A stretch of DNA of 47,753 nt from the NCBI GenBank assembly GCA_964470765.1, contig CAYYDV010000002.1, positions 1 through 47,753 on the forward strand, in the 5' to 3' direction. The number at the start of each line of letters is the position of its first letter. The stretch's first letter is position 1. The DNA comes from an uncultured Candidatus Saccharibacteria bacterium (GTDB lineage Bacteria > Patescibacteriota > Minisyncoccia > Minisyncoccales > JAGGXC01). Shown piece after piece: positions 1 to 44,599 of this stretch. The notes beneath the pieces are model-generated. The model was not told where the DNA came from. It worked only from the letters and a program-made list of their open reading frames with translations, and made no database searches. The position numbers were made by a program, and so were the translations under genes.

Positions 1-997
1 CTTTCTTTGTAGCCGCTAAAGTCTCTTCTACTTTTTGAAGAGTAATTCTTTTTTTCAGATTATTTAATATTTCCTGGTCAGCAGATTCTACTCCATACAT
101 AACTTGATGACAACCCGCTTTTTTCATTTCCTGGAGAGTCTCAGAATCAACCGTATCCACCCTTGAAAAACAACACCAGGTTAAGTCAAGATTATTTTCT
201 AGAATAAGATTACAAAAATCTATCACATTTTTTCTATTCTTAGTAAAAGTATCATCGTAAAATGTTATATCTTTTATTCTATAATTCTTCTGAAGAAATA
301 TTATTTCTTCAACAATACTTTCATCTGACCTAAATCTTATTCTCTCTCCCAAAAAATTTCCTTTACAAAAAGTACACTTACCAGGACAACCTCTAGAAGT
401 AATCATTCCAGAAGAAGGTTTTCGCTTGTAAACACCAGAGGCAGGATAATACTTGTCCATGGGTAAAAGATCATAAGCCGGGAAAGGAAGACCATCAATA
501 TCGAGAATCATTGGCTGGGGCGGGTTTATAATAACTCTGCCATTTTTTTTGAAGCCAATCCCTTTAACTGCTTCGGGAGATTTATTAGAAAGCAACTCTA
601 AAAGAGTGTATTCTCCCTCCCCTATTACTGCATAATCCACCTCTTTGAAGCTTACTACTTCTTCCGGTCTAACGGATGGGTGAACTCCACCAATTATTAC
701 TTTTGTCTCTGGATAATTTTTTTTGACTATTTTAGCTACCTCAAGGGCATTATTAATAATGACGGTAGTAGCTGGAATCCCAATAAACCTAGGAGAAACA
801 TCTGGCAGGTATTCTTCAATTCTATCTAGCCCTATCTCTGAGGCATTACAATCTAAAATAGAAACTGAATAACCTTTCTCTCTTGCCAGAGCTGCTAAGA
901 GGGCTAATCCAAAGGGAGGAAGACAAGCAGAAACATTTTTCCAAATATTTCCCGATTCTCTATACAAAGGAGGGTTTATAAATAATACATCAATCAT
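1..997 (-). CDS. Cobalamin-binding-domain (class B type) radical SAM enzyme, partial; the C-terminus lies beyond the left window edge
   Basis: Absent from the ORF track because it has no stop inside the window. My translation from the ATG (complement of 995-997) reads MIDVLFINPPLYRESGNIWKNVSACLPPFGLALLAALAREKGYSVSILDCNA...VIIGGVHPS...MITSRGCPGKCTFCKG...YGVESADQEIL. It has an N-terminal B12-binding-type Rossmann region followed by a CxxxCxxC motif, and it is paralogous to 1638..3206, 6404..7837 and 36422..37816. Confidence 0.8.
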   Translation of the reverse strand, partial: MIDVLFINPPLYRESGNIWKNVSACLPPFGLALLAALAREKGYSVSILDCNASEIGLDRIEEYLPDVSPRFIGIPATTVIINNALEVAKIVKKNYPETKVIIGGVHPSVRPEEVVSFKEVDYAVIGEGEYTLLELLSNKSPEAVKGIGFKKNGRVIINPPQPMILDIDGLPFPAYDLLPMDKYYPASGVYKRKPSSGMITSRGCPGKCTFCKGNFLGERIRFRSDESIVEEIIFLQKNYRIKDITFYDDTFTKNRKNVIDFCNLILENNLDLTWCCFSRVDTVDSETLQEMKKAGCHQVMYGVESADQEILNNLKKRITLQKVEETLAATKK

Positions 998-1003
998 CAC
1001 TTT

Positions 1004-1564
1004 TTAAATAGAAATAGAAACTGTTTCAGTTGTTCTAATTTTTTTCCCAACCCAAACCTTAACTATTTCATAAGCTCCGAAAAAAACAGTTACATAAAAC
1101 AAATTTCCAAATATAGTATTTCTAAAAAAGGGCAAGGCCATTAGATAACACTGAATCAATCCAGAAAGAGTTTTTGCATACCAAGGAGTAAATATCCAAA
1201 CAGCAAAATTAGTTAAAAAGAAGAATATAAGGGCAGCTAAGAGAGAGCTTCCTAAGACTGTATACCATTTCTTATGTTTCTTTAGCCAAAAACCTAAAAC
1301 AACGCAAATTAAGAAACTTCCATAAACAATAATCATTAAGTTAACCTCGTAATAACCAATAAATATATCTGAAATTATTATTATTGCTAAAGGTAGGATA
1401 AAAGCTATCTTCTTGCGAAAGTAAACTCCCCCGAACAAAGCTATAGCTAGGATGGGAGAGAAATTAGGAGGATGAGGAAGAAACCTTAAACTAACTCCTA
1501 TTAAAATCAGAACTGAAGCAATTAAGAACTCTAAAATTTTGGTGTTTTTTGTTAGATTAGACAT
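1004..1564 (-). CDS. Small polytopic membrane protein (about 6 TM), possibly a DUF6580 / solitary S-component-like vitamin transporter
   Basis: 186-aa ORF that is hydrophobic throughout. It carries the motif LRFLPHPPNFSPILAIALFGG, which I associate with DUF6580-type putative transport proteins. The family assignment is from memory and is not verified. Confidence 0.55.
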   Translation of the reverse strand: MSNLTKNTKILEFLIASVLILIGVSLRFLPHPPNFSPILAIALFGGVYFRKKIAFILPLAIIIISDIFIGYYEVNLMIIVYGSFLICVVLGFWLKKHKKWYTVLGSSLLAALIFFFLTNFAVWIFTPWYAKTLSGLIQCYLMALPFFRNTIFGNLFYVTVFFGAYEIVKVWVGKKIRTTETVSISI

Positions 1565-1637
1565 ATGTTTTTTATTAACTTATATTATATTTTTATTTTT
1601 AGATGAATAATGTAGATTTTTTTACTAATTGCAGGGG

Positions 1638-3206
1638 TCACCTTTGATTATATATATTTTCTAAAATCTTTGTATATTCCTCCAATTTCCCATTATCGTT
1701 CCATATACCATCATTGGCCAATACGCAAAGTTCATATATTTTGAATGATTCATTTGTTAATTCTTTTCCGATTCTATCATTTTTCTCTGAGCGTTGAATG
1801 TATTTATAAAAACTGTAGGGCATTTTCACATATAGCACAAATCTATCAAAAAGAGCCATCAATTCTTCTTTGGAAATATTAGGAAAAGTTAAAGTCGGCT
1901 CACCTTGTTGGAATACGGCCGTAGAATCTTTGTCAAAAAATCCATTTTTTATAGCAATTTCTCTCAGTTCGGTTTTCTCAAGGGGAAAGAAAAAACCAAG
2001 ATTTGGATAGCGTACTTCGGCTTTTCTGTTTAGCTCAATGGTTTCCATTATGGTTTCTCTATTTTCAAAAGGAAGCCCCAGCATGTTAAAAGAAGAAGTG
2101 CGAATACCTGCTTTATTAAACATCTTAGTTGCTGCTATAATTTCTTCTTCAGCTTCGATTCTTTTAAGCATTCTCTTTCTCATTTTATGATTACCCGTTT
2201 CAATGCCCAGGCTTACGCTTACGCAGTTCATTTTCTTCAAAAGGTCTATTTTTTCTTCATTTACGTTTCTGGCATTGGCCATTATAGTAAATGGGATTCC
2301 TACTTCTTGTTGATATCTTTCAGCTAAATTACGGAAATAATCCATAGGTTTGAGACAAAAATCTTCATCATGAAATTTAAAGAAATTTATATTCCATCTA
2401 TCTACTAAACATTTTAATTCTTTTATGATTCTATCCACACTATAACCTCTTAAGAATGGTCCAGCTTTTGGCCCATAAAGCTTACGATAAGAAGCATTGA
2501 TACAATAAGTGCATTGGTTAGGGCAACCCCAATACAACATATGGTCGCCTCCTGTATAAATTTTTCCATCAAAAGGTTTAAGGAATTGACGCTTGTCAAA
2601 AATCGACCAATCTAAAAATGGTAAAGAATCCAAATCTTGATAATAAGGCCTCAGTTCATTTTTTTGAATACTTCCATTCTTGTTTCTCCAAGCGATATTT
2701 TTAATTTTTTTAGGGTCTTTATTCTGGGAAACATATTCTACAAATTCAGACATAAACTCTATGGCTTCACCAATACAGACAAAATCTATATCTTGACAGT
2801 TCAAGACCTTCTCAGGAACCATTGTTGCAATTTTATTTCCCCAAATAACTATAATTTTTTTATTCCACTCCTTAGCAATTTTAGAAGCTTCAAAACCAAT
2901 ATATGTTTCATCCGATAAAGCAGATACTCCTAATATATCAGGTTGAAATTCTTCTAATTTTCTAATAAGTTCTTGCTTAAAATCTATCTTTTTCTTAGCT
3001 ACATCAAATTTGCTAAAATCAACTTCTTTAAAGATTTTAACTTTGGCACGAACTTCGGTAGCATCTTTAAAGCCGAAATCTATAGAAGTTGTATCAAATA
3101 AATCAACGCTATGTCCTTCTCTTTTTAAGATGGCAGATAATAAAGACAAACTTATTGGTTTAAAACCAAATTGGTCTTTATTTGGCCATACAAATAAAAT
3201 TTTCAT
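1638..3206 (-). CDS. B12-binding-domain radical SAM enzyme
   Basis: 522 aa. The N-terminus MKILFVWPNKD...ISLSLLSAILKREGHSVDLFD is the B12-binding-like domain. It has the CxxxCxxC motif in YWGCPNQCTYCINASY and the downstream segment SLGIETGNHKMRKRMLKR typical of the radical SAM core. Confidence 0.85.
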   Translation of the reverse strand: MKILFVWPNKDQFGFKPISLSLLSAILKREGHSVDLFDTTSIDFGFKDATEVRAKVKIFKEVDFSKFDVAKKKIDFKQELIRKLEEFQPDILGVSALSDETYIGFEASKIAKEWNKKIIVIWGNKIATMVPEKVLNCQDIDFVCIGEAIEFMSEFVEYVSQNKDPKKIKNIAWRNKNGSIQKNELRPYYQDLDSLPFLDWSIFDKRQFLKPFDGKIYTGGDHMLYWGCPNQCTYCINASYRKLYGPKAGPFLRGYSVDRIIKELKCLVDRWNINFFKFHDEDFCLKPMDYFRNLAERYQQEVGIPFTIMANARNVNEEKIDLLKKMNCVSVSLGIETGNHKMRKRMLKRIEAEEEIIAATKMFNKAGIRTSSFNMLGLPFENRETIMETIELNRKAEVRYPNLGFFFPLEKTELREIAIKNGFFDKDSTAVFQQGEPTLTFPNISKEELMALFDRFVLYVKMPYSFYKYIQRSEKNDRIGKELTNESFKIYELCVLANDGIWNDNGKLEEYTKILENIYNQR

Positions 3207-3213
3207 TTTATTT

Positions 3214-3651
3214 TTAAAAAGGTGATTTTTCGAACTTAAATTCTATTTTATCACCTGGATTTATTTCTTGTTTATCAGCGGCGACCATAGATATTTCTCC
3301 ATTAACATAATACATCCAATATTTTTCATCCTGACCATTTTCTTTATTTCCAATAACCTCGATAAAGATTCCAATATCATAACTTTTTGTTTTCAAAGCT
3401 AAATTTAATTCTAATGCCCCTTTCTTTAATAAATCAAAAGCGGTCATTCCTTCTTTAAATTCAGCTTCGAAGGCCTTAGGTGGTTCTTCGCCTTCATCAA
3501 TAACTAAAACTACTTCTTGTTTAATCTCCTTTTGAGGAATTCTAATTTCTTCTTGGAAGACAGGTTGGCTAATCTTCTCAGAAAATATCAACCAAGCACT
3601 ACTGATGATTACTCCTATACCAATTATTATAAAAATAGTTGTTTTTTTCAT
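3214..3651 (-). CDS. Exported or membrane-anchored DUF4430 (transcobalamin-like C-terminal domain) protein
   Basis: 145 aa with an N-terminal signal/anchor, MKKTTIFIIIGIGVIISSAWL. The C-terminal segment GMTAFDLLKK...IFIEVIGNKENGQDEKYWMYYVNGEISMVAADKQEINPGDKIEFKF matches the DUF4430 pattern as I remember it (W-x-Y-x-V-N-G ... GD-x-I-x-F). Confidence 0.65.
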   Translation of the reverse strand: MKKTTIFIIIGIGVIISSAWLIFSEKISQPVFQEEIRIPQKEIKQEVVLVIDEGEEPPKAFEAEFKEGMTAFDLLKKGALELNLALKTKSYDIGIFIEVIGNKENGQDEKYWMYYVNGEISMVAADKQEINPGDKIEFKFEKSPF

Positions 3652-3735
3652 ATTAATTTAATTATTGAAGGTTGCTGTTATAAATAAAAATTGGAGCCTA
3701 ATATTCGCCACTTCTCACCCTGCTTAGAACCATTC

Positions 3736-4305
3736 TCAGTATCCCACGTAAGTTAACAAATTTAAAGAGATTAAATATTCTTGACGGCCTAAAATAAAAT
3801 TTAAAGCAAGCTCTTGAGTACCATTTTTTAGGTCAGCATTAGTAAGATTGTTAACAGAAAGCACAGAACAATCCTGTTTTGAATAACTATCCCATTCACC
3901 ACTATGGATCTTCAAACCATATTCTCCCCGTTTTGCCATTTCCAATATCTCTGTCCCCGGAAACGGTGTCATCATACCTATCGTTACAAAATCAGGATTT
4001 ATTTTCATCATAAGGTTTATGGAGTCATTTATTGTTTCAACTGTTTCCTCAGGGTGGCCAAAAATAAGGTTCATATATGTCCTCAGCCCTATTTTTTTTG
4101 ACCACTCAAAGGTATCAACAACTTGCTTAACTGTTATCCCCTTCTTTGAGTTTTTGAGTATCGTGTCATTTCCTGATTCCACGCCATAATTCACCATTAC
4201 ACAACCAACTTCTTTCATTTTCTTTAACATTTCGAAGTCAACATCGTCAACCCTTGTTTCACAATGCCATTCTATTTCTTTATTTATCCCCCTCTGTCGA
4301 ATATT
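3736..4305 (-). pseudogene. Remnant: C-terminal half of a B12-type radical SAM paralogue; the B12 domain and CxxxCxxC motif are missing
   Basis: The frame is open from 4305 (a stop codon lies at 4306-4308) and reads NIRQRGINKEIEWHCETRVDDVDFEMLKKMKEVGCVMVNYGVESGNDTILKNSKKGITVKQV... This aligns with the ...CFSRVDTVDSETLQEMKKAGCHQVMYGVESADQEIL part of the gene at 1..997. The upstream neighbour ends at 4343, so there is no room for the roughly 250 missing N-terminal residues. Confidence 0.7.
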
Positions 4306-4342
4306 TTAAAATTAAGGATTTAGCTTTTATGATATTTTATTG

Positions 4343-5626
4343 TTACCAAAAAAAGCCACCTTCATAAGAGAAGATTTTGAAGACGTTAACACTTGAAATA
4401 ATTATTAAAAATACAAAAACCACTAAGTAAAAAACTGGAGAATACCAACTTTTGTATTTCTTCAGAAATCTAGCTACTCTATCTATTCCTAAAATGGTTA
4501 GAGGATAGATAACTGGAAATAACAAAAAAGCATGACGAGGAGAATAATAATTCATTATAAAAAATAAAGTAAAGAAGGAGAAAATTAAACCGAAACAAAA
4601 AAGTCTTTTTCTTTTAAAAGAAAGATCTCTAAAGCCGATGAGAGCGAAGAGGACAGGCACTAATAAAAATCCGTAGATGATAACATTAGTAAATTTAGGC
4701 AAGGCTTCAAGAAAAACTTCAGCTGTTTTAAACCAAGGCCAATAAAAAATCTTAAACATCCAAACACCCATATCAAAATCTATCACTTCAGTGGAAAAAT
4801 AACCAATCTTAAAAACTTTAGTTACCCATAAATACCATAGAGCCCGAGGAATTAAATGAATTATCAGAAATAAAACCCCTTCTTTATAACGTTTGAAGTA
4901 AATAGCTAATATTAAAATAAAAATTGGTATAGCAAAAATCATTTTCCCCAAAATTAAGATACCAATAATTAATGAAAAAATAATTAATTTTTTAATAGAA
5001 GGATGAGTTATATAGTTATAAAGCAAATAAAGATTGAAAATCACCATAAAAGCACCGAAGATATTAGTTTCGGGCTGAATTAACCAAATATGGGCAAAAG
5101 GAGAAAAGATCAATAAAACAGAAGAAAGAAAAGCTACCCGCCAAGATATTATTTTCTTCACCAATGAATAGAAAAAAAATACTGTAAGAAAAAATAGAAT
5201 AAAATTAAGGAAAATACCGGCAAGAAAAGTTAAAGCATAAGAAGAACCACCAATTAAATGTATTGGCCGAGAAATTAAATATACCAAAAAAGGATAGAGG
5301 GGACGGTTTAAATTGGCAAGGTGTCCCCTAAAATAATGCTGAGGGAAATCATGAGCCAATAACATATAACCTCCGCAATCAGAATTAATATGATAATCAG
5401 ATAAAAATGGGTAAATTTTTCCTGCTATTAAATTGTCAAGGGAATCAAATGAATAATCCTTATGAAAACTTAATTCTTCAATGGTTTTCCAATAGTCATT
5501 TGAAATATTATAAGCAGGAAATAAAAAACTGTAGAATAATTGACACAATATTAAAAAGAATAGAATAAGAAAAACTTTTTTCTTATTTTGAAGCAAACTT
5601 TCAATTTTGGTTAACGTATGGTTCAT
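4343..5626 (-). CDS. Polytopic membrane protein, probable GT-C fold glycosyltransferase (ArnT/PMT-like)
   Basis: 427 aa with 10 or more hydrophobic spans and a loop with acidic residues after TM1 (HKDYSFDSLDN). It carries RPLYPFLVYLISRP, which resembles the ArnT/PMT_2 family, and it lies three genes downstream of a polyprenyl-phosphate GT2 in the same co-directional array (a B12 radical SAM gene and a methyltransferase gene sit between). Confidence 0.5.
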   Translation of the reverse strand: MNHTLTKIESLLQNKKKVFLILFFLILCQLFYSFLFPAYNISNDYWKTIEELSFHKDYSFDSLDNLIAGKIYPFLSDYHINSDCGGYMLLAHDFPQHYFRGHLANLNRPLYPFLVYLISRPIHLIGGSSYALTFLAGIFLNFILFFLTVFFFYSLVKKIISWRVAFLSSVLLIFSPFAHIWLIQPETNIFGAFMVIFNLYLLYNYITHPSIKKLIIFSLIIGILILGKMIFAIPIFILILAIYFKRYKEGVLFLIIHLIPRALWYLWVTKVFKIGYFSTEVIDFDMGVWMFKIFYWPWFKTAEVFLEALPKFTNVIIYGFLLVPVLFALIGFRDLSFKRKRLFCFGLIFSFFTLFFIMNYYSPRHAFLLFPVIYPLTILGIDRVARFLKKYKSWYSPVFYLVVFVFLIIISSVNVFKIFSYEGGFFW

Positions 5627-5633
5627 AATAATA

Positions 5634-6380
5634 TTATTTAGATGGTTTTTGAGCCGAAATTAATAAAGAACCAGCCAATTCTTTTATTAAGGGAATTTTC
5701 TCTAATAAATAATTAATACCCTTTGCTGGAGGAACAAAAAATTTCGGCAGAAAAGGATGGAGAAAATCAAAGGGTATTACGTTAATATTCTCAAAGTTAT
5801 TTTTCTCTAAAAGGCAGCGTATCTGCCAGCGAAAAAAAGCTGTCTCGTCCGGAGAATCACCAAGTATTTTTTTAATAAAGGTTATATTTTTTTGTATAAG
5901 AATTTGGGGGTTCAACATGTTTGGTTCGCTGAAAATCATAATTCCTTTTGGCTTTAACACACGATAAATATTCTTCAGGGCTAACTCTATATCTAAATGA
6001 TGTAAAATAGATATTCCACAGACTACATCAAAGTAATTATTAGAAAAATTTTCTAAGCTTTCTCCTCGGGCACACTGAAATTGAACATTAGAAAAAGAAG
6101 CTTTTTTTCTAGCTATATCCAAGAATTCTTTAAAAATATCAGTAGCAATAATTTTTGATTTTGAACGACTTAAATAATAAGTAAATTCACCCGTCCCGCA
6201 ACCTATTTCAAGAACTTTTTTATTTTCGTCTAAACTGGCTTTTTTGATAATAAGACTTGCCCTTCTCTTTACTCTCATTTTACCAACTAATCCTTCCCTC
6301 CCCCAAATTTTATCGGCCTGATTCAATATCTCTTTATCGTGTTGAATTTCTCTAATTTGACGCAACGTTAAATTAGCCAT
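5634..6380 (-). CDS. Class I SAM-dependent methyltransferase
   Basis: 248 aa with SAM-binding motif I (KVLEIGCGTGEFT) and the Methyltransf_11-like ISILHHL...VLKPKGIMIFSEP. Confidence 0.85.
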   Translation of the reverse strand: MANLTLRQIREIQHDKEILNQADKIWGREGLVGKMRVKRRASLIIKKASLDENKKVLEIGCGTGEFTYYLSRSKSKIIATDIFKEFLDIARKKASFSNVQFQCARGESLENFSNNYFDVVCGISILHHLDIELALKNIYRVLKPKGIMIFSEPNMLNPQILIQKNITFIKKILGDSPDETAFFRWQIRCLLEKNNFENINVIPFDFLHPFLPKFFVPPAKGINYLLEKIPLIKELAGSLLISAQKPSK

Positions 6381-6403
6381 GTTTAACTTTGGGTAAGTAA
6401 AAA

Positions 6404-7837
6404 CTATTTTCTAAAAAAAGTAAAAATAAATTTAAAACCAATGATTAAAATATTAAAAAGCTGGGTAGGAGTTTTTGCTATTTTTATAATTTTCCAAATG
6501 ATTTGAGGACGAAAATAAAATTTCTTATAAGCCAAAGAGATGTATTCTTTTACAATTTGTGATGTGAGCCACGGTGTCGATAAATTTGGTATTTCTTGAT
6601 TAATATCTTGCCAACTTTTACTAACTATCCATCTTTTTTCTGTGGCTTCCCTGTACAATTGAGACCCAGGGAAAGGAGTAGCAGCATAAAAATGAGCAAA
6701 AGTAAGAGGTAGAGAAAGAGCAAAATTAATAGTTTCTTTTAAAGTTTCTTCCGTTTCACCCGGGTAACCTAAAATAAAATGTCCATCTACAACTATTCCC
6801 GCTTTTGCCGCTTCTTTAACTATTCTTCTTCCTTCTTCAATGGAAGCAAGAGGTCCCTTATCGGCAAGTTTTAAGATTGAATTAGAACCAAATTCTAGAC
6901 CAAAGGCAATTTGCCAACAGCCGGCTTCTTTAAGTTCTTTAAATAAAGAGGGGTCAATTCTACTAGGTCGACTATTACTGACCCATCTAATTTTTTTATG
7001 CAATTCTTTTTTCTTTATTAAATTCAAAATGCTTCTTAAATATCTACTATCCATTGTTACAAACTCTGTCCAAAAAAGAAAATCTTTGATCCCATAATCT
7101 CTTATATTCATTTCTATTTCTTCGATTATTTTCTGGGGACTTCTTTTTCTCATTTTTTTTCCATAGTAAACAGAAGCGTTACAAAATTTACAATTAAAAG
7201 GACATCCTCTAGCGAAAGAAATCAAATTAAATGGTTTATTTAAAATCGGTAATTTATAATTATTAAAATCAACTCCTTTCCAGTGGGAAAATTCTAATTT
7301 ATCTAAATCCATCAGAAATTCCCTATTGGGATTTAAAATAATTTTTTTGCCCTCTCTGAAAGTCAAGCCTGGAATATCTCTAAAGTCATATTTATTTTTA
7401 AAAAAATTAGTTAAATCTTTAGCGGTAAGTTCTGGTTCGGCTCTAATAATAAAATCTAAAGAAGGAAATTCTTGAAGAGTCTCTTTAGACAGCTCGGTAA
7501 CGTGAATTCCGATGGCGGCTACCTTGATAGAAGGTTTTAATTCTTTAATTTTTGGCAAAAACCAACCCAAATCAGTAGCAATGGTTGGAGTGGTAGTAGA
7601 AATAAATATTAAATTGGGATTATAATTTTTTATTTTCTCAAGAGTCTGTCCTAAATCTAATGCCGCTGGACCACTATCAATAATAAGAGTATCAGCTATG
7701 GACTTTATCTGGCCTGCAATTAAAGCTAAACTTAAAGGCGGAAAAGGTGCACCCCAGATATCCCACTGTTGACAACGTCCTTCTCTTACCCATCTTTTTT
7801 TATCGGGAACAGGAGGATTAATAAGTAAAACCTTCAT
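6404..7837 (-). CDS. B12-binding-domain radical SAM enzyme
   Basis: 477 aa. The N-terminus is MKVLLINPP...PLSLALIAG. It has CxxxCxxC in FARGCPFNCKFCNASVYYG, followed by AFGLEFGSNSIL. Confidence 0.85.
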   Translation of the reverse strand: MKVLLINPPVPDKKRWVREGRCQQWDIWGAPFPPLSLALIAGQIKSIADTLIIDSGPAALDLGQTLEKIKNYNPNLIFISTTTPTIATDLGWFLPKIKELKPSIKVAAIGIHVTELSKETLQEFPSLDFIIRAEPELTAKDLTNFFKNKYDFRDIPGLTFREGKKIILNPNREFLMDLDKLEFSHWKGVDFNNYKLPILNKPFNLISFARGCPFNCKFCNASVYYGKKMRKRSPQKIIEEIEMNIRDYGIKDFLFWTEFVTMDSRYLRSILNLIKKKELHKKIRWVSNSRPSRIDPSLFKELKEAGCWQIAFGLEFGSNSILKLADKGPLASIEEGRRIVKEAAKAGIVVDGHFILGYPGETEETLKETINFALSLPLTFAHFYAATPFPGSQLYREATEKRWIVSKSWQDINQEIPNLSTPWLTSQIVKEYISLAYKKFYFRPQIIWKIIKIAKTPTQLFNILIIGFKFIFTFFRK

Positions 7838-7839
7838 AA

Positions 7840-8523
7840 TTAACCAAAAAATAAATATTTTATAAAACTATAAATATAACGAAAGGCAACTTTTCTTAAT
7901 TTAATGACTGACTCGCCGTATTCTCGCTTATACTCATGGGTGGAAACCTCCACCACTTTATACCCCTTCTTTAAAGTTTTAATCAGCATTTCTTGTTCAA
8001 TGGTTGTAATATTTTCTTTAAGATTTAATTTTCTAGCAATCTCGGTCTTAATGACCCTAAAACCATTTTGCGAATCAGTCAATTTCACTCCAAAACGATA
8101 ATTTATTCCTAATGTTATAATATCGCAGGCAACCATTCTTAAAAACTTATTAAGATCTCCGTGCAATTCATCACTCCCTCCTCTTCCCCGAGAACCAATC
8201 ACATAATCTGCTTTCTCTTTTATAATGGGTTTAATTAATTTGGGAATATCATTTGGATCATGAGATCCATCAGCATCTATAAAAACAATTATATCTCCTT
8301 TGACTCTTTTTATACCGCATCGCAAAGCATCACCCTTTCCTTTTCCATTATCTAAAATCACTCTGGCGCCCAAACTCTGAGCAATTTCTTTAGTTTTGTC
8401 TTGTGAATGACCATCCACTACTAATATTTCGTTTCCATAAGATTTACATTTGTTAATAATTTCCCCTATTGTTTTTTCCTCATTTCTTGCTGGAATAATA
8501 ATAGAGATAAAATTTTTTTCCAT
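7840..8523 (-). CDS. GT2 glycosyltransferase, polyprenyl-phosphate sugar synthase type (DPM1/ArnC/GtrB-like)
   Basis: Motifs ISIIIPARNEEKTIGEII, VVDGHSQDKT and FIDADGSHDP. The track start at 8535 is a TTG; the ATG at 8523 (MEKNF...) lies 5 nt after the fcl stop and is the more likely start. Confidence 0.8.
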   Translation of the reverse strand: MEKNFISIIIPARNEEKTIGEIINKCKSYGNEILVVDGHSQDKTKEIAQSLGARVILDNGKGKGDALRCGIKRVKGDIIVFIDADGSHDPNDIPKLIKPIIKEKADYVIGSRGRGGSDELHGDLNKFLRMVACDIITLGINYRFGVKLTDSQNGFRVIKTEIARKLNLKENITTIEQEMLIKTLKKGYKVVEVSTHEYKREYGESVIKLRKVAFRYIYSFIKYLFFG

Positions 8524-8528
8524 ATTAA

Positions 8529-9470
8529 TTAACAACTAAAACTACAATACCATTGGATAGTTTTCTTAAGACCTTCTTCAAATGAAGTAGATGCCCTAAA
8601 TCCAAATTCTTTTTCAGCTTTGAGAGTATCGAGACGACGCCGGGGCTGGCCATCGGGTTTGGAAGTATCCCAACGAATTTCTCCTTTAAAATTCATCAGT
8701 TTACAAATTAACTGAACCAAATCTTTTATTGAAATCTCCATTCCCGAGCCCAAATTTACCGGTTCTGATTTATCATATTTCTCAGTAGCCAAAATTATTC
8801 CCTCGGCCCCATCTTTTACATAAAGAAACTCTCGGGTTGCTTTACCTGTCCCCCAAGCCTCAATATAATTTCTTCCTTCTTCCTTTGCCTCATAAACTTT
8901 TCTAATAATGGCGGCAATAACATGGGAGGATTTGGGATCAAAATTATCCTCAGGACCGTACATATTGACCGGCAAAAGATAAATAGCATTAAACCCATAT
9001 TGCTGCCGATAGGCTTGAGCTTGAACTGAAAGCATTTTCTTGGCTAAACCATAGGGGGCATTAGTTTCTTCGGGATAACCGTTCCAGAGATCTTCTTCCT
9101 TAAAGGGAAGAGGGGTAAATTTGGGATAGCTACAAATTGTCCCAATAGCTACAAACTTCTCTACCCCGGCAAGTCGGGCTGCCTCTATTAATTGAATACC
9201 CATGATTGCGTTATCGTAAAACATTTCTCCGGGAATCTCTCGATTCAAGCCAATCCCCCCAACTTTAGCTGCTAAATGAATAACTAAATCTTGGTTTTTA
9301 ACTGCTTTCTGGCAATTCTCCCATTTCTTTAAATCTAATTCTTTAGCCCTTGGCAAAAATAAATTTTGTTCAGGAACCTTTCTTTTTTCTAATAAATTCT
9401 TAACCAAATGCTTTCCCACAAAACCATGGGCACCAGTTATTAAAATTTTCTTTTCTTTAAGATTAATCAT
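8529..9470 (-). CDS. fcl: GDP-L-fucose synthase (GDP-4-keto-6-deoxymannose 3,5-epimerase/4-reductase)
   Basis: 313 aa with [14 protein letters not shown] (NAD(P) binding), [10 protein letters not shown] (YxxxK) and [25 protein letters not shown]. It sits immediately downstream of gmd. Confidence 0.85.
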
Positions 9471-9471
9471 A

Positions 9472-10533
9472 TTAATCGGTTTTCCACCATCTATTGGAAA
9501 ATCTTTCTTTTAAAATTTTGTCTCCCTCTCCTGGTGATTCTAACTTCTGAGCTCGAAAGTCAGCATCAACCATAATCTTTATTAAATCTTTGAATTTAAT
9601 TCTTGGCTCCCAGTTGAGCTTTTCTTTAGCTTTAGAAGAATCACCAATTAAGGATTCTACTTCAGCTGGGCGAAAATATCGGGGATCAATTTCTACATAT
9701 TGTCTCCAGTCACCAAAACCAGCATAATTAAAAGTTTCTTCTAAAAATTCTTTTACTGAATGAGCCTCACCGGTAGCAATAACAAAATCATTGGGTTTTT
9801 CTTGTTGAAGCATTAAGTACATCGCATATACATGTTCTGGAGCATAGCCCCAGTCTCTTTTTGCCTCTAAATTTCCTAAATAAAGTTTTTTATCCAAACC
9901 GGCTTTAATTCGGGCAACCCCCCGGGTTATCTTCCGAGTAACAAAAGTTTCCCCTCTTCTCTCTGATTCGTGATTGAATAATATTCCATTGCAGGCAAAG
10001 ATACCGTAGGCTTCCCTGTAAAACTGAGTAGTGTAATAAGCAAAGACTTTAGCGCAAGCATAGGGGCTTCTGGGATGAAAAGGAGTATTCTCATCTTGGG
10101 GAGGAAGTGAAGAACCAAACATTTCTGAGCTGGCAGCCATATAAAACTTTATCGGTCGACCAGAGTTTCTTATTGCCTCAAGAATCCTTAGGGTTCCTAA
10201 GCCATCAGTATTGGCAGTATATTCAGGCATATCAAAACTCACTCGGACATGAGACATAGCGGCCAGATGATAAATCTCATCAGGTTTAATTTGTTTAACC
10301 AATTTCTCAATATTACCAGTGTCAGTAAGGTCACCGTAATGTAAAAACAACGTTCTATTCTCTATATGGGGGTCTTGATAGATATGGTCAATCCGACCAG
10401 TATTAAAACTGCTAGACCTCCTTATAATTCCGTGAACTTCATAGCCTTTATCTAATAAAAGTTCAGTTAAATACGAGCCGTCTTGCCCTGTAATTCCCGT
10501 AATGAGAGCAATTTTTTTATTTTCTTGATTCAT
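9472..10533 (-). CDS. gmd: GDP-mannose 4,6-dehydratase
   Basis: 353 aa with [45 protein letters not shown]..., [12 protein letters not shown] and [21 protein letters not shown]. These are highly characteristic of Gmd. Confidence 0.95.
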
Positions 10534-10539
10534 AATTTT

Positions 10540-11397
10540 TTATAATTTAGATTGGATTTTTCTCTTAAAAGCCAAAGATAATCTCCAAGGATAAAATAAG
10601 GATATCATTGAAAAAACCCGTCTGGGAAAAGGAGGCTTTCTCACTCCTTCAGAAGTTAAAACCCAATCGGCATCTCGAAGAGTCAACATATTGACAAAAC
10701 CACCGGCTAATTTCAAAGTCCTCTGAACTTCAGGTCCTGTCACTTTTTCTTTCCTTCCATAAGGAGAATGGGAATAATCATGGTTTTGGTGAATAACTGT
10801 AGTCACTTCTGTAGCATCTATCACTGGTATTCCTAAAGAGCGAACTCTATAAATTACCCAGTTGTCCCAACCAGCCCGACCAACAGCAAACCCTGGCATT
10901 TGAAGAGTATCGGGAAGATTACGAGGAAAAACACAATAGTCCATTCCCAAAGGACCATGTAATTCGCTATAATCATTAATACATTCACGAAGTTTCTTTT
11001 CCCAATCTGATTTGTCAAAATTAATTTCTTCTTTTAGGTTAATATTCCAACGTTGTCCGCTCATTAAAAATAAAGATTTTTTAATCTTTTGAATCGCTTC
11101 AGTAAAATCATTCAATAGAATAATATCCGAGTTGGTATAAACTAAAATTTTGCTCTTTGCTTCTTTTTTAGCTATTTCAAAAGCTGAACTCAAAAGGGGT
11201 GTTCCTAGTTCAGTCTTTTCAATCTCGGGAATATGTCTAATTCCAAACTCAGCTGCCACCTCAGCCACTCCTTCATCGTCACCAAACAAAATTACTTTAC
11301 ATTTTGGACGAAGTGCTAACCAACTCCTAATAGCATTTCTCTGAATGGTTCCAACATGCCCCTTAAATGATTTTGGAATAGTAAATACGGTTAACAT
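10540..11397 (-). CDS. Uncharacterised putative glycosyltransferase (GT-A-like family of unknown specificity)
   Basis: 285 aa. The N-terminus MLTVFTIPKSFKGHVGTIQRNAIRSWLAL...VILFGDDEGVAEVAAEFGI...YTNSDIILLNDF resembles a conserved hypothetical GT-like family seen in polysaccharide loci. An internal 91-nt segment is duplicated at 15454..15544. Confidence 0.4.
   Translation of the reverse strand: MLTVFTIPKSFKGHVGTIQRNAIRSWLALRPKCKVILFGDDEGVAEVAAEFGIRHIPEIEKTELGTPLLSSAFEIAKKEAKSKILVYTNSDIILLNDFTEAIQKIKKSLFLMSGQRWNINLKEEINFDKSDWEKKLRECINDYSELHGPLGMDYCVFPRNLPDTLQMPGFAVGRAGWDNWVIYRVRSLGIPVIDATEVTTVIHQNHDYSHSPYGRKEKVTGPEVQRTLKLAGGFVNMLTLRDADWVLTSEGVRKPPFPRRVFSMISLFYPWRLSLAFKRKIQSKL
11176..11266. 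repeat. Direct repeat copy 1 (inside the intact gene 10540..11397)
   Basis: Hand alignment of the 91-nt segment ttcaaaagctgaactcaaaaggggtgttcctagttcagtcttttcaatctcgggaatatgtctaattccaaactcagctgccacctcagcc against 15454..15544 shows 5 mismatches. Confidence 0.85.
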
Positions 11398-15709: not shown

Positions 15710-16591
15710 TTGGATTGGCAAATAGTAGTATTGTTGAATATTGGAATATTTACTGTTGCACAGATTTTTATTAGATTGAGCGTGAGGAATCTTCCGAGAG
15801 CCAAGGCTCTTTCCTTCATGTTCCTGATCTGCGCTGGAGTGATTTCTTTGATTGGTCTAGCTACTGGTAACCTACGTTGGTCTGACAGTGCACTTATTGT
15901 AATAACCGTTGGGTTCTTTAATTGTTTCGGTGCTTATTGTCAATGGCGAGCTATTGGATTCAGCCTAAGTAGAACTTCTCTCTTTAATCCTTTATCGTAT
16001 GGGTTAGCAATGATTCTAGCTGGAATCTTCTTAGGCGAATTTTCTCAATGGAACTTAAGATTAATAACTGGTATTGTATTGTGCTTTTCGGCAGTTTTTC
16101 TTTTTACCGCAAGCTCAAAAAGGATAGTTGAAAAAGAAGAAGTAGAAGATGATCCGAAAAAGTGGCTAATTTTTGTCTTGGGAGCAGTAATAATCTTTGG
16201 AATGGTTATTTTCCTAATGAAAGTTTTCTCTTCCAGCATCCCTAGAGGACAGTTCTTGATATACTGGTACAATGGGGCCTTCCTAGGATCATTGCTTCTT
16301 ATTAAGCTGGATAAGCAAAAGGAGAAGAAGAAATTTTTCAAACATCCCAAGCTGTCAATAATGTTCGTACCCATCTTAAGTCTCCTCATCCTTGGCAACC
16401 TAGCAACTCAGTACTGGGCCTTTGAATTAACTTTAGCTAGCCAGGTTCTTCCTTTTATTTCAGTAGGTACTGTTTTTCTACCAGTACTTCTCAGTTGTTA
16501 TCTTTTTGGAGATGAATGGAAATTCATGAAAAAAGCGAAATTAGCTTCTGTTATTGCTGTCATCGGCGCTCTACTAATAATCTTGCCCTGA
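15710..16591 (+). CDS. DMT-superfamily (EamA-like) 10-TM transporter
   Basis: Two hydrophobic halves with EamA-like organisation. The track start is the TTG at 15689, but AAGGAGG at 15696-15702 sits 7 nt upstream of the in-frame TTG at 15710, so 15710 is the more likely start. The gene ends at a TGA. Confidence 0.7.
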   Translation: MDWQIVVLLNIGIFTVAQIFIRLSVRNLPRAKALSFMFLICAGVISLIGLATGNLRWSDSALIVITVGFFNCFGAYCQWRAIGFSLSRTSLFNPLSYGLAMILAGIFLGEFSQWNLRLITGIVLCFSAVFLFTASSKRIVEKEEVEDDPKKWLIFVLGAVIIFGMVIFLMKVFSSSIPRGQFLIYWYNGAFLGSLLLIKLDKQKEKKKFFKHPKLSIMFVPILSLLILGNLATQYWAFELTLASQVLPFISVGTVFLPVLLSCYLFGDEWKFMKKAKLASVIAVIGALLIILP

Positions 16592-16601
16592 GTTAATCAA
16601 T

Positions 16602-16637
16602 GAGTTAATACATCAAATAGTATTAACTCTTTTTTTA
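16602..16637 (+). terminator. Rho-independent terminator of the DMT gene
   Basis: A perfect 10-bp stem (gagttaatac at 16602-16611 with gtattaactc at 16620-16629), an 8-nt loop, then a T7 run at 16630-16636. Confidence 0.7.
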
Positions 16638-16686
16638 TTTTCAAGAAACAAACTGCTTATTTTAGTATTACCTCAATAACCTTTTT

Positions 16687-16833
16687 CTAATTATTATTTT
16701 CTGGTCCTAAATCTTTTAAAATTCTCCCCATCTCAAGACTCTGCTGATGATTACAGGATATCTCTGCCACGATTAAAACGGGATGGTCAGGTCCTATCAT
16801 TTTATTGCCTATTTTAAAGTTAATTTTGTTCAT
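16687..16833 (-). pseudogene. Remnant: N-terminal 48 codons of a NeuB-type (N-acylneuraminate/legionaminate synthase family) gene
   Basis: My translation is MNKINFKIGNKMIGPDHPVLIVAEISCNHQQSLEMGRILKDLGPENNN*, below the ORF-track length cutoff. It matches the canonical NeuB N-terminus (compare MGNKKEIIIGKTKVGGDNPCFVVAEIGINFDGKYEQATTLIKAA of 20695..21807) and then stops. Confidence 0.65.
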
Positions 16834-16923
16834 AAACTTAAAATATATATCAACCAATTTCCTTTTTTTGTTTTAAATTTAAAACCTAGTTTTTCAAATA
16901 ATTTTACGGAAGGTATATTATTT

Positions 16924-17691
16924 TCATTGATTTCTGCTATCAGTTTTTTTGCTTTCTTTTTGTTTTACGTTTTTATTTATTTCCATTAGTTTGGGGTGCT
17001 GTTTTAAAAAAGCTAGTATATCTTTCATTAGAAAAATCTTTTTTTCTCTATATAGTCCTTTATAAATCTGCCGAACGAACTCTAAATCTTTGATCTCGTC
17101 TACTGTCCAACGCATATATGAAAGATCTTCATTGTTCTCAACATTGATAAGGTAAAACTCCTCCGGATGCTCACGAATATATGATGTAACATGCTCTCGC
17201 TGATAGGATTCTTTTGCTTCCTTAAAAGCTGTCTCTAAGATTTTAAAATTAAAAACCTCTATATCTAAACCTATAGGAAAGGTTCTCTTAAGATTATTGG
17301 AAGTATAGTCAGCTCCCGAATTTAAATGCTTCTCAATAATTAAATCAACTATTTGAGGATCTAACAAAGGATTATCCGCTGTTACCCTCACTACTATATC
17401 ACATTTAAATCTTTTAGCGGCTTCATAATATCGAGAAAGAACATCACATTCTTTCCCTCTAAAATATTTTAGATTATTTTCTTTAGCAAATTTTTCTAAT
17501 ATATCGTTTTCTTTTGTGTTGGGAATAGCAAGAATAATATCATCAAATTTCTCTGAAAATTTTAATCGATTAAGTATATGCCAAAGCATTGGTTTACCCT
17601 CTATATCCATCAGGACTTTTTCTGGCAATCTACTTGAGCCAATTCTTGCCTCAATAATAGCAACGGTCTTTTTATTAATATTTTTATACAT
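16924..17691 (-). CDS. SpsF/FlmC-like cytidylyltransferase (CMP-sugar / CMP-nonulosonate synthase family)
   Basis: 255 aa with VAIIEARIGSSRLPEKVLMDIEGKPML, the typical N-terminus of the SpsF-type cytidylyltransferase family. Confidence 0.8.
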   Translation of the reverse strand: MYKNINKKTVAIIEARIGSSRLPEKVLMDIEGKPMLWHILNRLKFSEKFDDIILAIPNTKENDILEKFAKENNLKYFRGKECDVLSRYYEAAKRFKCDIVVRVTADNPLLDPQIVDLIIEKHLNSGADYTSNNLKRTFPIGLDIEVFNFKILETAFKEAKESYQREHVTSYIREHPEEFYLINVENNEDLSYMRWTVDEIKDLEFVRQIYKGLYREKKIFLMKDILAFLKQHPKLMEINKNVKQKESKKTDSRNQ

Positions 17692-19997: not shown

Positions 19998-20714
19998 TTA
20001 GTAGCTTCTTAAACCTTTAATGAAGCCATATTTAGCAAATAATTGTTCTTTTCCAATTCTAACCTTTTCTTTGTTGGCCGTAATACTGGCTCCGTGTCGT
20101 TGATAAATAAAAAGTGGCTGAGAAATGTATGCACTTTTATATTTTTTTTGAGCTTTAATTAATAAATCATATTCTGGAAAAATTAAATTTTCATCATACA
20201 ATCCCGTTTCCTCCAATATTCTCTTTCTAAACATAATCCCCACAGCGACGCTATTAAAAACATTATCTCTCAAAGAAACTATCTTCTGTTTACCACTTGT
20301 CATATCTTTTTCATAATAATCGCAGTATACAAAATCTATGTCTTTTTCATTTTCAAAAACGTCGAGCATCTTTTTTAGAATCTCTGGCTTAAACAAATCA
20401 TCACTGTCTAATAAAATTACGTAGGCCCCTCTGGCTTGAATTATGCCCGTATTGAGCGCCCTTATGTGTCCTTTGTGTTTTTGTCTTATCAGCTTTATTT
20501 TATCTTCATAGGAACTCAGAATCTTTTCTGTCTCATCAGTTGAACCATCATCAACCACCACGATTTCGTATATTTTTGGGTTGATTGTCTGACGGAAAAC
20601 ACTTTCAATAGCCTTTCTAACAAAACGGCTTGCGTTATAGGCGCGGATAATGACAGAAATTTGTGGTAAACTATTTTTCTTTCTCATAATGTTATTACTT
20701 TTGTAATATATCAT
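19998..20714 (-). CDS. GT2 family glycosyltransferase
   Basis: 238 aa with ISVIIRAYNASRFVRKAIESVFRQT, VVVDDGSTDET and ILLDSDD (DxD). Confidence 0.85.
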   Translation of the reverse strand: MIYYKSNNIMRKKNSLPQISVIIRAYNASRFVRKAIESVFRQTINPKIYEIVVVDDGSTDETEKILSSYEDKIKLIRQKHKGHIRALNTGIIQARGAYVILLDSDDLFKPEILKKMLDVFENEKDIDFVYCDYYEKDMTSGKQKIVSLRDNVFNSVAVGIMFRKRILEETGLYDENLIFPEYDLLIKAQKKYKSAYISQPLFIYQRHGASITANKEKVRIGKEQLFAKYGFIKGLRSY

Positions 20715-21807
20715 CCCAAGTAATGCCTTTGGCTTGGGGAATATTTCTTACTGCTTTGTATCCCTTTATTAATAATTCGTAATACTTGGGCTTCAATCCC
20801 CTTTTTTTCTTGCCAGGTCGCAAGACAATAATATTATTTCTGGTAAATTTTTCTCCTTTTTTTATATTTCTCTTGGCAAAAAGACAGCGATAAGTAAAAT
20901 CTCTGAGCCATTTTTCTCCCGGGTAGGTCTTTCTTTCAGAAGTACCAAGAAGAATAGGATCAATCTTAATCCTTTTCCCCTTTTTCATTTCCTTTTCAGT
21001 TTTCCTGATTGTTTTAACCATTAAGGTTAATTCAGCAGGATTAAGAGCAAATGAGTGGTCAGGACCAGGAAAGTTTCTATCTAAAGTAATATGTTTTTCA
21101 ATAATTTTAGCTCCCAGGGCTACGGCTGCTCGAGGAGCAATTACCGGATCAGAACTATGGTCAGAGTATCCCACAACCACATCGGGAAAAACTATCTGTA
21201 AGGTGGTAATTATACTGAGATTCAAAGATTCAAGGGGTGCTGGATATTGTCCAATACAATGCAATAAAGCTATATTTTGGTTCCCTTCTTTCTGGAAAAC
21301 CTCCATTGCTTCAGCTACCTCTGGTAATGTCGCTCCACCGCAAGAAAATATAATGGGTTTCTTTTTTTTAGCAATGTGTCGGATGAGGGGAATGTGAGTA
21401 ATTTCATAGGATGTATTTTTATAGGCATCTCCTCCATATTTTTCTAAAATGTCGGCACTTTCTTCATCGCAAACACTAGAGAAAAATTCCAAGCCTTTTT
21501 TCTTTGTATAATTCCTTAGCCTTGGTACCCAGTCAATTGGTAATTCTCTTTCTTTAATAATCTTAACTATGTCTTTTTTTTCACCTCTAGCAGTCAGATA
21601 TTTCCCTGCTTCTTTGGGATACATTCTTTCTGCCTTAAATAATTGAAATTTTACAGCGCTACAGCCAGCTTTTACGGCCGCCTTTATCAAGGTAGTCGCC
21701 TGTTCGTATTTACCATCAAAATTAATCCCTATCTCTGCCACAACAAAACAAGGATTATCCCCTCCTACTTTTGTTTTCCCTATAATAATTTCTTTTTTAT
21801 TCCCCAT
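20695..21807 (-). CDS. NeuB-family nonulosonic acid synthase (NeuB/LegI/PseI type) with a C-terminal SAF domain
   Basis: CFVVAEIGINFDGKYEQATTLIKAAVKAGCSAVKFQLF, GYSDHS and EKHITLDR are present, and the C-terminal FAKRNIKKGEKFTRNNIIVLRPG is SAF-like. The ATG at 21807 (MGNKKEIIIGK) fits the family N-terminus better than the track start at 21861. Confidence 0.9.
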   Translation of the reverse strand: MGNKKEIIIGKTKVGGDNPCFVVAEIGINFDGKYEQATTLIKAAVKAGCSAVKFQLFKAERMYPKEAGKYLTARGEKKDIVKIIKERELPIDWVPRLRNYTKKKGLEFFSSVCDEESADILEKYGGDAYKNTSYEITHIPLIRHIAKKKKPIIFSCGGATLPEVAEAMEVFQKEGNQNIALLHCIGQYPAPLESLNLSIITTLQIVFPDVVVGYSDHSSDPVIAPRAAVALGAKIIEKHITLDRNFPGPDHSFALNPAELTLMVKTIRKTEKEMKKGKRIKIDPILLGTSERKTYPGEKWLRDFTYRCLFAKRNIKKGEKFTRNNIIVLRPGKKKRGLKPKYYELLIKGYKAVRNIPQAKGITWDDILQK

Positions 21808-44506: not shown

Positions 44507-44599
44507 TTTAATATAAATTAAAACTTTTATAAATATCAACCTTTTAAATTTTAAACTCTATTATTTCATTATCTAAGGTTATAAAGATTTGTCAATAAA

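Follow-up and report, generated by a model that had tools for sequence, protein, structure and literature searches.

Two domains of unknown function in a glycan locus of Patescibacteria and their predicted role in vitamin B12 uptake

The gene pair and its protein products

The stretch of DNA considered here (the window; 47,753 nucleotides (nt), contig CAYYDV010000002.1 of GenBank assembly GCA_964470765.1, recorded as an uncultured Candidatus Saccharibacteria bacterium) carries near its beginning two genes, one for a 145-aa protein with a DUF4430 domain (3214-3651) and one for a 186-aa DUF6580 protein (1004-1564). The two genes are here considered to form a two-part corrinoid (vitamin B12) uptake module, a reading to which a probability of roughly 0.78 is assigned; the DUF4430 protein is the predicted extracytoplasmic corrinoid binder, and the DUF6580 protein a predicted corrinoid transporter with the fold of the so-called S-components. 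All genes of the region are located on the minus strand and are transcribed from high to low coordinates. A class-B radical S-adenosylmethionine (SAM) enzyme gene is inserted between the two (1638-3206; 522 aa; B12-binding 40.9 bits, Radical_SAM 90.2 bits), and another follows DUF6580, with its C-terminus beyond the window edge (1-997; 85.6 and 73.9 bits, respectively). The intergenic gaps measure 7 nt from DUF4430 to the radical SAM gene, 73 nt from there to DUF6580 and 6 nt from the DUF6580 stop to the next radical SAM start, and the region therefore reads as a single tightly packed array. The enzyme encoded at 1638-3206 is a likely consumer of the imported cofactor. The nearest homologs are found in Ca. 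Nealsonbacteria and other metagenome-assembled genomes (MAGs) of Patescibacteria.

On the other side of the pair lies a radical SAM C-terminal remnant (3736-4305), about 110 nt from its upstream gene, which matches only positions 74-165 of the 166 in the PF04055 profile, possesses neither a B12 domain nor the CxxxCxxC region, and is a decayed paralog. It is preceded by genes that Pfam assigns to a PMT_2-type membrane glycosyltransferase (4343-5626) and a SAM methyltransferase (5634-6380), and these by an HpnJ/BchE-like class-B radical SAM gene (6404-7837; 477 aa; Radical_SAM 91.3 bits), whose B12-binding score of 25 bits is under the Pfam cut-off and whose NCBIfam scores (HpnJ 232.7, BchE 184.8 bits) do not reach the equivalog cut-offs. 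The genes at 1638-3206 and 1-997 pass the Pfam cut-offs for both domains, as does a further class-B gene deeper in the locus (36422-37816; 42.6 and 76.9 bits). The remnant directly upstream of DUF4430, together with the radical SAM gene inside the pair, suggests recent gain, loss and rearrangement of B12-dependent radical SAM paralogs. An earlier note, made from the letters of this DNA, had described B12-type radical SAM genes flanking the pair, had called 3736-4305 a remnant and had seen no cobalamin riboswitch upstream. These observations hold, and no riboswitch was returned by Rfam at the gathering threshold for the whole window or at E ≤ 1 for positions 1-9000.

The DUF4430 protein scores 63.6 bits with PF14478, for which the cut-off is 23.8 (E = 2.3e-17); the match extends across residues 79-142 and profile positions 7-72 of 72, and the motif YWMYYVNGEISMVAADKQEINPGDKIEFKF is at residues 111-140. 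Its N-terminus, MKKTTIFIIIGIGVIISSAWLIF, is a hydrophobic anchor with no lipobox and no obvious cleavage site, and the protein consists of this membrane anchor (residues ~5-24), a beta-grasp domain (45-145) and, between the two, a disordered linker (25-44). In the AlphaFold2 model the predicted local distance difference test score (pLDDT) is >90 for residues 45-145, and residues 1-42 are of low confidence. Foldseek matched this model, with a probability of 1.0 and a root-mean-square deviation (RMSD) of ~2 Å, to R. gnavus 3u7z and to cobalamin-bound beta-domains of transcobalamin, intrinsic factor and haptocorrin; the E-values lie between 2e-6 and 4e-4, and the TM-score is 0.78-0.82 per target (5no0, 5np4, 3u7z). 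Among these, 5np4 is the isolated human beta-domain with cyanocobalamin. Searches against the sequences of the PDB with the single protein gave no meaningful match, and the sole match of a narrow DUF4430 profile from the candidate phyla radiation (CPR), to cofilin, was rejected as spurious. Because these sequence searches were unproductive, the link between DUF4430 and transcobalamin rests on the Pfam hidden Markov model (HMM) and the fold.

With PF20221 the DUF6580 protein reaches 178 bits, the cut-off being 27 (E = 2.2e-52); residues 12-170 align to profile positions 6-157 of 162, and the motif RFLPHPPNFSPI is at residues 27-38. The family, which NCBI names 'DUF6580 family putative transport protein', contains at least 5,204 clusters at 50% identity (E ≤ 1e-3). 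AlphaFold2 modelled six helices (pLDDT 82.8, predicted TM-score 0.78), and the PDB entry ranked first by Foldseek is cyanocobalamin-bound BtuM (8c7p; probability 1.0, TM-scores 0.64/0.66, 176 columns), followed by the S-components FolT, ThiT and RibU; this credible set spans TM-scores of 0.5-0.66, and all other matches fall below 0.3. The earlier identification of the two products as an anchored DUF4430 protein and a DUF6580-type protein with about six transmembrane (TM) helices agrees with the Pfam matches, both far over their cut-offs, and the comparisons it had proposed, with the transcobalamin beta-domain and with BtuM or CbrT, yield the structural matches above and the family-profile match described next.

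At the sequence level the single DUF6580 protein found nothing meaningful in the PDB. A 51-sequence family profile found a single PDB match, the 182-aa chain 6fnp_A of the energy-coupling factor (ECF) transporter ECF-CbrT (E = 6.6e-6); this chain we take to be CbrT, as EcfA, EcfA' and EcfT are considerably larger. Alignment of DUF6580 with CbrT by hhalign (91% probability, E = 9e-7) covers the N-terminal 80 residues and brings together two common motifs, R-x(5-6)-P-N-x-x-P in loop 1 and S-(D/N)-I-F-x-G-F. At E ≤ 0.01 the window protein has no Pfam match besides PF20221, and so none to PF12822, which is the family matched by the CbrT fragment, itself not a match to PF20221. DUF6580 is placed outside the Pfam family of CbrT because of this missing PF12822 match, and by sequence comparison it is a distinct family that is a remote homolog of this B12-specific S-component. 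The earlier statement that the system would differ from ECF-CbrT is therefore correct for the Pfam family and needs qualification for the ancestry, in view of the profile and hhalign results.

Fifteen positions of DUF6580 are 100% conserved across all 79 species compared below, equally in glycan-locus, nrdJ/riboswitch-linked and receptor-linked members, and all 15 are present in the window protein. They include R27, P30, H31 and N34 (loop 1), D66 and G70 (loop 3), and T118, N119, Y129 and P145-F146-F147. As these residues are unchanged across contexts, there is no sign of a functional shift in the glycan-locus members. Lys/Arg clusters are found at the N-terminus and at 49-52, 94-99 and 173-177, from which the positive-inside rule would place loops 1, 3 and 5 outside the cell; R27, P30, H31, N34, D66, G70 and Y129 fall in these predicted outside loops. 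S-components bind their substrates on the extracellular side formed by loops 1, 3 and 5. Loop 3 of DUF6580 (residues 65-73, SDIFIGYYE) has no cysteine, and the only semi-conserved cysteine is C139 in TM6 (59%). The TM1 motif AxxxA, the EcfT-docking signature, occurs in 2 of 80 DUF6580 proteins and is absent from the window protein; CbrT has ALLTA at this site.

Linkage, regulation and neighbourhoods of the pair across species

For comparison, one genome per species (GTDB) was scanned with a 15-sequence DUF6580 alignment, which yielded 279 confirmed hits, and 79 species-level loci (numbered with the prefix L) were analysed from the best-scoring 80 of these. The loci were annotated by open reading frame (ORF) calling, HMM searches and clustering of neighbours, with Pfam and NCBIfam applied to recurrent neighbours. 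A DUF4430-like gene is present in 67 of the 79 loci and occupies position -1 of DUF6580 on the same strand in 64, a pairing far beyond chance; in three long contigs of relatives it lies 3-6 nt upstream. The two domains are also found as a natural fusion, P0285 (337 aa), with DUF6580 at residues 5-165, DUF4430 at 255-329 and a hydrophobic helix at ~190-211 between them. Given a six-TM core with a cytoplasmic C-terminus, this extra helix would place the C-terminal domain outside. In the nearest relative (L084, 82% identical) the two genes are adjacent, and because the pair is contiguous there and in 64 of the 79 loci, the radical SAM gene between its members in the window is regarded as a genome-specific rearrangement.

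The window holds a single DUF4430 gene. Many other loci have two or three DUF4430 paralogs upstream of DUF6580 (L016, L020 at 7146-9986, L021, L026 and L033, and also L018, L069 and L073), often with a 177-aa protein of weak Ig/BACON-like similarity between them (L020:8999-9532). These paralogs echo the paired extracellular SLBB proteins observed in 2007 and suggest a multi-subunit surface binder in some lineages. One locus, L020, has two complete DUF4430-DUF6580 pairs (9537-10561 and 16045-17099) about 6 kb apart.

Of the 40 loci scanned with Rfam, 17 have a riboswitch of the B12 clan, without exception on the strand that carries the pair. These riboswitches are distributed unevenly: 8 of 9 diderm-type loci, 8 of 24 in Patescibacteria and 1 of 7 close glycan-locus relatives (L013). 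In five loci (L056, L062, L063, L070, L071) the order is riboswitch, TonB-dependent receptor and DUF6580, as in L056 (6500-6737, 6851-8794 and 8853-9380, respectively), and in L074 a riboswitch (9616-9844) is directly upstream of DUF6580 (9941-10537). An AdoCbl-II element directly precedes DUF4430-DUF6580-pduO in L032, L043 and L047, the arrangement in L032 being AdoCbl-II 5124-5203, DUF4430 5258-5944, DUF6580 5947-6474 and pduO 6481-7032, and in L058 it stands ahead of two DUF4430 genes and DUF6580. RF01482 occurs in L033, and RF00174 in L012, L053 and L013. In 3 of the 17 (L051, L054, L082) the riboswitch comes immediately after DUF6580 and acts on the gene that follows. The occurrence of three riboswitch classes on the same pair is hard to explain unless the pair acts in B12 acquisition.

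Genes within five positions on either side of DUF6580 were counted for all 79 loci. The class II ribonucleotide reductase NrdJ is encoded in 23 (NrdJ_Z equivalog in NCBIfam, 585 bits against a cut-off of 400) and NrdR in 16. Adenosyltransferases of the PduO type are found in 15 loci, in 11 of them directly downstream of DUF6580, and those of the CobA/BtuR type in 14; no locus has both, so that 29 have one or the other. TonB-dependent receptors, with a best NCBIfam match to the vitamin B12 receptor that is under the equivalog cut-off, occur in eight. At least one B12-linked gene (NrdJ, NrdR, PduO, CobA, B12-dependent radical SAM or receptor) is present in 49 of the 79. The canonical operon in Patescibacteria can be written nrdR-nrdJ-(cobA|pduO)-DUF4430-DUF6580-(pduO), and the setting in Ignavibacteriota and Bacteroidota is riboswitch-BtuB-like receptor-DUF6580, the receptor gene lying just before or after DUF6580 in these two groups and in Omnitrophota. 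The capture proteins are complementary, in that eight diderm loci have the TonB receptor without DUF4430, and 67 of the 71 others have DUF4430 without the receptor. No cob/cbi biosynthesis genes were found in any neighbourhood examined.

Several other features were encountered in these neighbourhoods. A homolog of TraG/VirD4-like coupling proteins (~790 aa) lies within five genes of DUF6580 on either strand in 20 loci of Patescibacteria (for example, L043:7536-9908); a link to the pair was considered and rejected, as strand and distance vary and the recurrence fits conserved synteny in one CPR subclade. A 463-aa family with no Pfam or NCBIfam match (representative L052:11051-12442) is encoded downstream of DUF6580-pduO in L042, L052, L076 and L082; in L060 its gene directly precedes DUF6580. 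The AdoCbl-II element of L082 (1247-1327), downstream of DUF6580, stands by its position just before a gene of this family, which may be an unrecognised member of the B12 regulon. Matches to group I introns are located a few kb from the B12 operon in L032 (14215-14418, 83 bits) and L043 (13126-13327, 75 bits), and the NrdJ ORF of L012 (969-4331) encodes 1,120 aa, compared with ~800 aa elsewhere, and may hold an intein or an extra domain. Record titles and content look inconsistent for L008, L009, L012 and L020-L024 ('uncultured Candidatus Saccharibacteria') and likewise for L042, L045, L046, L049, L052, L053 and L057 ('uncultured Gammaproteobacteria'). These appear to be mislabelled MAGs from co-assemblies, with nrdR-nrdJ-DUF4430-DUF6580 of the Patescibacteria type and proteins 45-70% identical to those of Nealsonbacteria, and their labels are not trustworthy.

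The window is connected to the B12 operons by close relatives. The DUF6580 protein of L012, 68% identical to that of the window, is encoded in the order nrdJ (969-4331), cobA (4372-4956), RF00174 (5061-5236), DUF4430 (5320-5769), an ORF and DUF6580 (6469-7035). When rooted with the diderm members, a rough neighbour-joining tree shows the proteins linked to glycan and radical SAM genes, that of the window included, as a terminal clade within the members from B12 operons. In the window subclade (L005-L022) a B12-dependent radical SAM gene is found within five genes in 13 of 18 loci and directly abuts the pair in five. From the position of this clade and its radical SAM linkage it follows that the glycan-locus placement is a derived, lineage-specific relocation, and the relocated pair is usually without riboswitch control and beside a different class of B12 enzyme. 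The earlier note had called a cofactor-supply module unusual inside a glycan locus and had proposed to examine the co-occurrence of the pair with B12-dependent radical SAM genes. Family-wide such a neighbour is present in 13 of 79 loci, which bears out the statement, whereas in the window subclade the association is the rule.

The remainder of the window (G+C ~33%) is a large glycan and nonulosonic-acid locus of 47 kb that encodes DegT aminotransferases, formyltransferases, epimerases, glycosyltransferases, a Polysacc_synt flippase (37890-39362) and several methyltransferases. Two NeuB-family synthases (20695-21861; 31548-32423) and two CMP-sugar (CTP_transf_3) synthetase-like genes (16924-17691; 34773-35528), together with the DegT, formyltransferase and methyltransferase genes, suggest two pathways for heavily modified nonulosonic acids within one locus. 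The window ends with genes for three large proteins (41573-43264, 43433-44539 and 44696-47746), two of them with weak PG_binding_1 similarity and the third (1,016 aa) essentially without a family match; these may reside at the cell surface and be modified by the glycan machinery.

A predicted route for corrinoids and its alternatives

The earlier proposal of a dedicated corrinoid supply, composed of a surface binder and an S-component-like permease, is strengthened by the folds of the two proteins, their adjacency and fusion, the riboswitches of the orthologs and the linkage to NrdJ, PduO, CobA and BtuB-like receptors. In the mechanism envisaged, the N-terminal helix would anchor the 145-aa protein on the outside of the cell membrane, and the transcobalamin-beta-type domain displayed there would capture cobamides present in the environment or supplied by a host cell and hand them over to DUF6580. 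The latter may hold the corrinoid in a pocket lined by loops 1, 3 and 5 together with the outer half of each of TM4-6, at R27/H31/N34, D66 and N119/Y129, and the corrinoid would be moved inward by the toppling motion of S-components. In most Patescibacteria the module would be switched off through B12 riboswitches and would feed adenosyltransferases and NrdJ, which would trap the cofactor. In the window subclade, the pair in the glycan locus most likely supplies the neighbouring class-B radical SAM enzymes, which would act as the trap instead. If corrinoid uptake is indeed the role of the pair, DUF6580 probably works in the manner of BtuM, as a solitary protein independent of an ECF module; this mode is favoured because there is no EcfT gene nearby, because btuM has similar neighbourhoods and because most of the family lacks the AxxxA motif.

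A number of observations weigh against a role in corrinoid uptake. The evidence is computational throughout, and to our knowledge neither binding nor transport of a corrinoid has been demonstrated for a bacterial protein of the DUF4430 or DUF6580 family. Among the annotated genes of the window there is no cob/cbi gene, nrdJ, adenosyltransferase or second B12 transporter, and with riboswitch, adenosyltransferase and nrdJ absent, the B12 link of the window rests on orthology and on the adjacent class-B radical SAM genes. No B12-linked neighbour besides DUF4430 is found in 30 of the 79 loci, a set that is itself biased to Patescibacteria and rests on one peptide pattern. Transcobalamin was not reached by sequence in the PDB with either the single DUF4430 sequence or the narrow CPR profile, and 3u7z was deposited merely as a 'putative metal binding protein'. 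The Foldseek E-values for DUF6580 are weak (0.039 for BtuM; range 0.04-0.6). Such values are usual for small helical membrane proteins, and the case for the fold therefore rests on the TM-scores and the uniform list of matches. In the PDB, BtuM was not matched at E ≤ 10 by the single DUF6580 sequence or by the family profile, and DUF6580 lacks an equivalent of Cys80, the loop-3 residue that ligates cobalt in BtuM. No energy source for uptake was identified in the genes analysed. Finally, transcobalamin-like proteins of L. sakei have been proposed as heme binders (bioRxiv 10.1101/864751).

An alternative that retains the substrate and changes the energisation is that DUF6580 is a conventional group-II ECF S-component, that is a divergent CbrT, served by a shared EcfA-EcfA'-EcfT module encoded elsewhere and driven by ATP. 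The homology to CbrT is remote yet significant, CbrT functions only with the ECF module (PMC5997447), genes of group-II S-components are typically unlinked to their module, and transcobalamin-like genes of Firmicutes occur in operons with CbiO/CbiQ (Burroughs et al. 2007, PMC1796856). Against this stand the 1.33 Mb of sequence around the pair in the 79 species, neighbourhoods in which no EcfT-like gene was found and the four ABC-ATPase-like genes are unrelated and do not adjoin the pair; BtuCDF genes were likewise not found near the pair in these neighbourhoods. The BtuB-like receptor genes adjoining DUF6580 in Ignavibacteriota, Bacteroidota and Omnitrophota recall the setting of btuM, and 'metabolic trapping', as proposed for BtuM (PMC6072759), has its parallel in the linkage to adenosyltransferases. 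With the presumed EcfT-docking signature in only 2 of 80 proteins as well, dependence on an ECF module is considered unlikely.

Other functions for the pair appear less plausible. Its ligand might be an incomplete corrinoid such as cobinamide, a lower-ligand base, or a tetrapyrrole such as heme: cobinamide is accepted by both CbrT and BtuM (PMC5997447, PMC6072759), heme scavenging has been proposed for the L. sakei proteins mentioned above, and ligand specificity is not readable from the models of the pair. However, cobU/S/T and cbiB do not recur near the pair whereas adenosyltransferases, which act on complete corrinoids, do; the linked NrdJ and class-B radical SAM enzymes need complete cobamides, and the B12-clan riboswitches respond to cobalamins and not to heme. 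In addition, the transcobalamin beta-domain contacts the nucleotide side of cobalamin, and a different ligand is accordingly regarded as improbable. It is slightly harder still to see the pair as B12-related without being an importer, that is as a surface sensor, a store, an exporter or a decyanation device like BtuM, which has decyanase activity besides its proposed transport function (PMC6072759). Riboswitch OFF-control would suit any function in B12 acquisition or handling, but the position of DUF6580 between a BtuB-like outer-membrane receptor and cytoplasmic adenosyltransferases is that of the missing inner-membrane step, the catalytic cysteine of BtuM is absent, and export is implausible for small Patescibacteria genomes with cob/cbi genes in no neighbourhood examined. 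We know of the S-component fold from importers only, which also counts against such roles. A part in glycan assembly, with the SLBB domain binding a sugar or polysaccharide, the membrane protein acting as flippase or acceptor and B12 being irrelevant, would suit the 47-kb glycan locus, and other SLBB clades are found in polysaccharide export proteins (PMC1796856). It was considered and rejected as the least credible of these proposals: the domain belongs to the transcobalamin-like clade (PF14478), orthologs 44-68% identical belong to nrdJ/adenosyltransferase operons controlled by B12 riboswitches, glycan-locus members have kept the invariant residues, the glycan-locus relative L013 retains an upstream cobalamin riboswitch, and the locus owns a flippase at 37890-39362.

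The uptake module, as favoured here, has implications for organisms with minimal biosynthetic capacity, as the Patescibacteria/CPR are. It would give two 'domains of unknown function' a specific role that is open to testing, explain how the B12-dependent enzymes of these bacteria are supplied and improve the prediction of B12 dependency from metagenomes. The riboswitch-, nrdJ- and receptor-linked versions and the glycan-locus version, all with an identical set of invariant residues, provide natural controls, and the two proteins offer a small system for the study of S-component-like transport of a 1.3-kDa substrate. The more general proposition has about an even chance of being correct: that DUF6580 is an unrecognised family of B12 transporters without an ECF module, fed by a tethered binder in Patescibacteria or a BtuB-like receptor in diderms, that it is the main cobamide route for reduced bacteria auxotrophic for B12, and that one lineage uncoupled the pair from the riboswitch and moved it to glycan loci for class-B radical SAM enzymes. 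B12 scavenging by the binder half had already been predicted in 2007 (PMC1796856), and what is new is the predicted combination of a tethered binder of this transcobalamin-like kind with a B12 transporter of the S-component type, two partners that are coupled, and sometimes fused, in prokaryotes. A literature search found no paper mentioning DUF6580, PF20221 or B12 uptake in Patescibacteria, none on the way in which Patescibacteria/CPR obtain the cobamides that NrdJ and the numerous class-B radical SAM enzymes need, and DUF4430 merely in passing in proteomics and genome papers. The inner-membrane B12 transporters of most prokaryotes are still unidentified (PMC6072759).

Comparison with known B12 uptake systems

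The best structural match, BtuM of Thiobacillus denitrificans (6FFV/8C7P, PMC6072759), is like DUF6580 a six-TM protein of ~190 aa with the S-component fold, and both are proposed to carry out the inner-membrane step of B12 uptake. The genomic logic is also the same, as btuM co-localises with btuB and btuR (PMC6072759) and DUF6580 in related loci is encoded beside BtuB-like TonB receptors and corrinoid adenosyltransferases. The two have no detectable sequence similarity, however, and BtuM relies on Cys80 in loop 3 where DUF6580 has the invariant His31 in loop 1 and Asp66 in loop 3; DUF6580 is not placed in the BtuM family because of this lack of similarity and of a loop-3 cysteine. BtuM is moreover proteobacterial and has no partner binder, whereas DUF6580 of Patescibacteria is paired with, or fused to, a transcobalamin-like domain.

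CbrT of Lactobacillus delbrueckii (6FNP) is a cobalamin-specific S-component (PMC5997447) and the sole PDB protein found by the DUF6580 profile, with the loop-1 and S-(D/N)-I-F-x-G-F motifs in common and the same substrate class predicted for DUF6580. It differs in its Pfam family (PF12822 rather than PF20221), in its requirement for EcfAA'T, in carrying AxxxA and in having no extracellular partner; DUF6580 mostly lacks AxxxA and has no ECF genes nearby.

The binder shares PF14478 and the beta-grasp fold with transcobalamin, intrinsic factor, haptocorrin and R. gnavus 3U7Z (RMSD ~2 Å), and shares a predicted extracytoplasmic location with the bacterial transcobalamin-like SLBB proteins. The animal proteins add an alpha/alpha-toroid domain that clamps B12, whereas the DUF4430 protein consists of the beta-domain alone on a membrane anchor. 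For the bacterial proteins, Burroughs et al. (2007) predicted B12 scavenging and linked the domain to operons with the ECF-type CbiO/CbiQ in Firmicutes (PMC1796856); here the partner is DUF6580, with no ATPase nearby. With the BtuB-BtuFCD system of the E. coli type the pair has a common logic, namely high-affinity capture coupled to an inner-membrane transporter under a cobalamin riboswitch, and diderm relatives of DUF6580 make use of a BtuB-like receptor. The pair nevertheless shows no homology to BtuF, BtuC or BtuD, and in place of an ABC ATPase-driven complex it has one small membrane protein.

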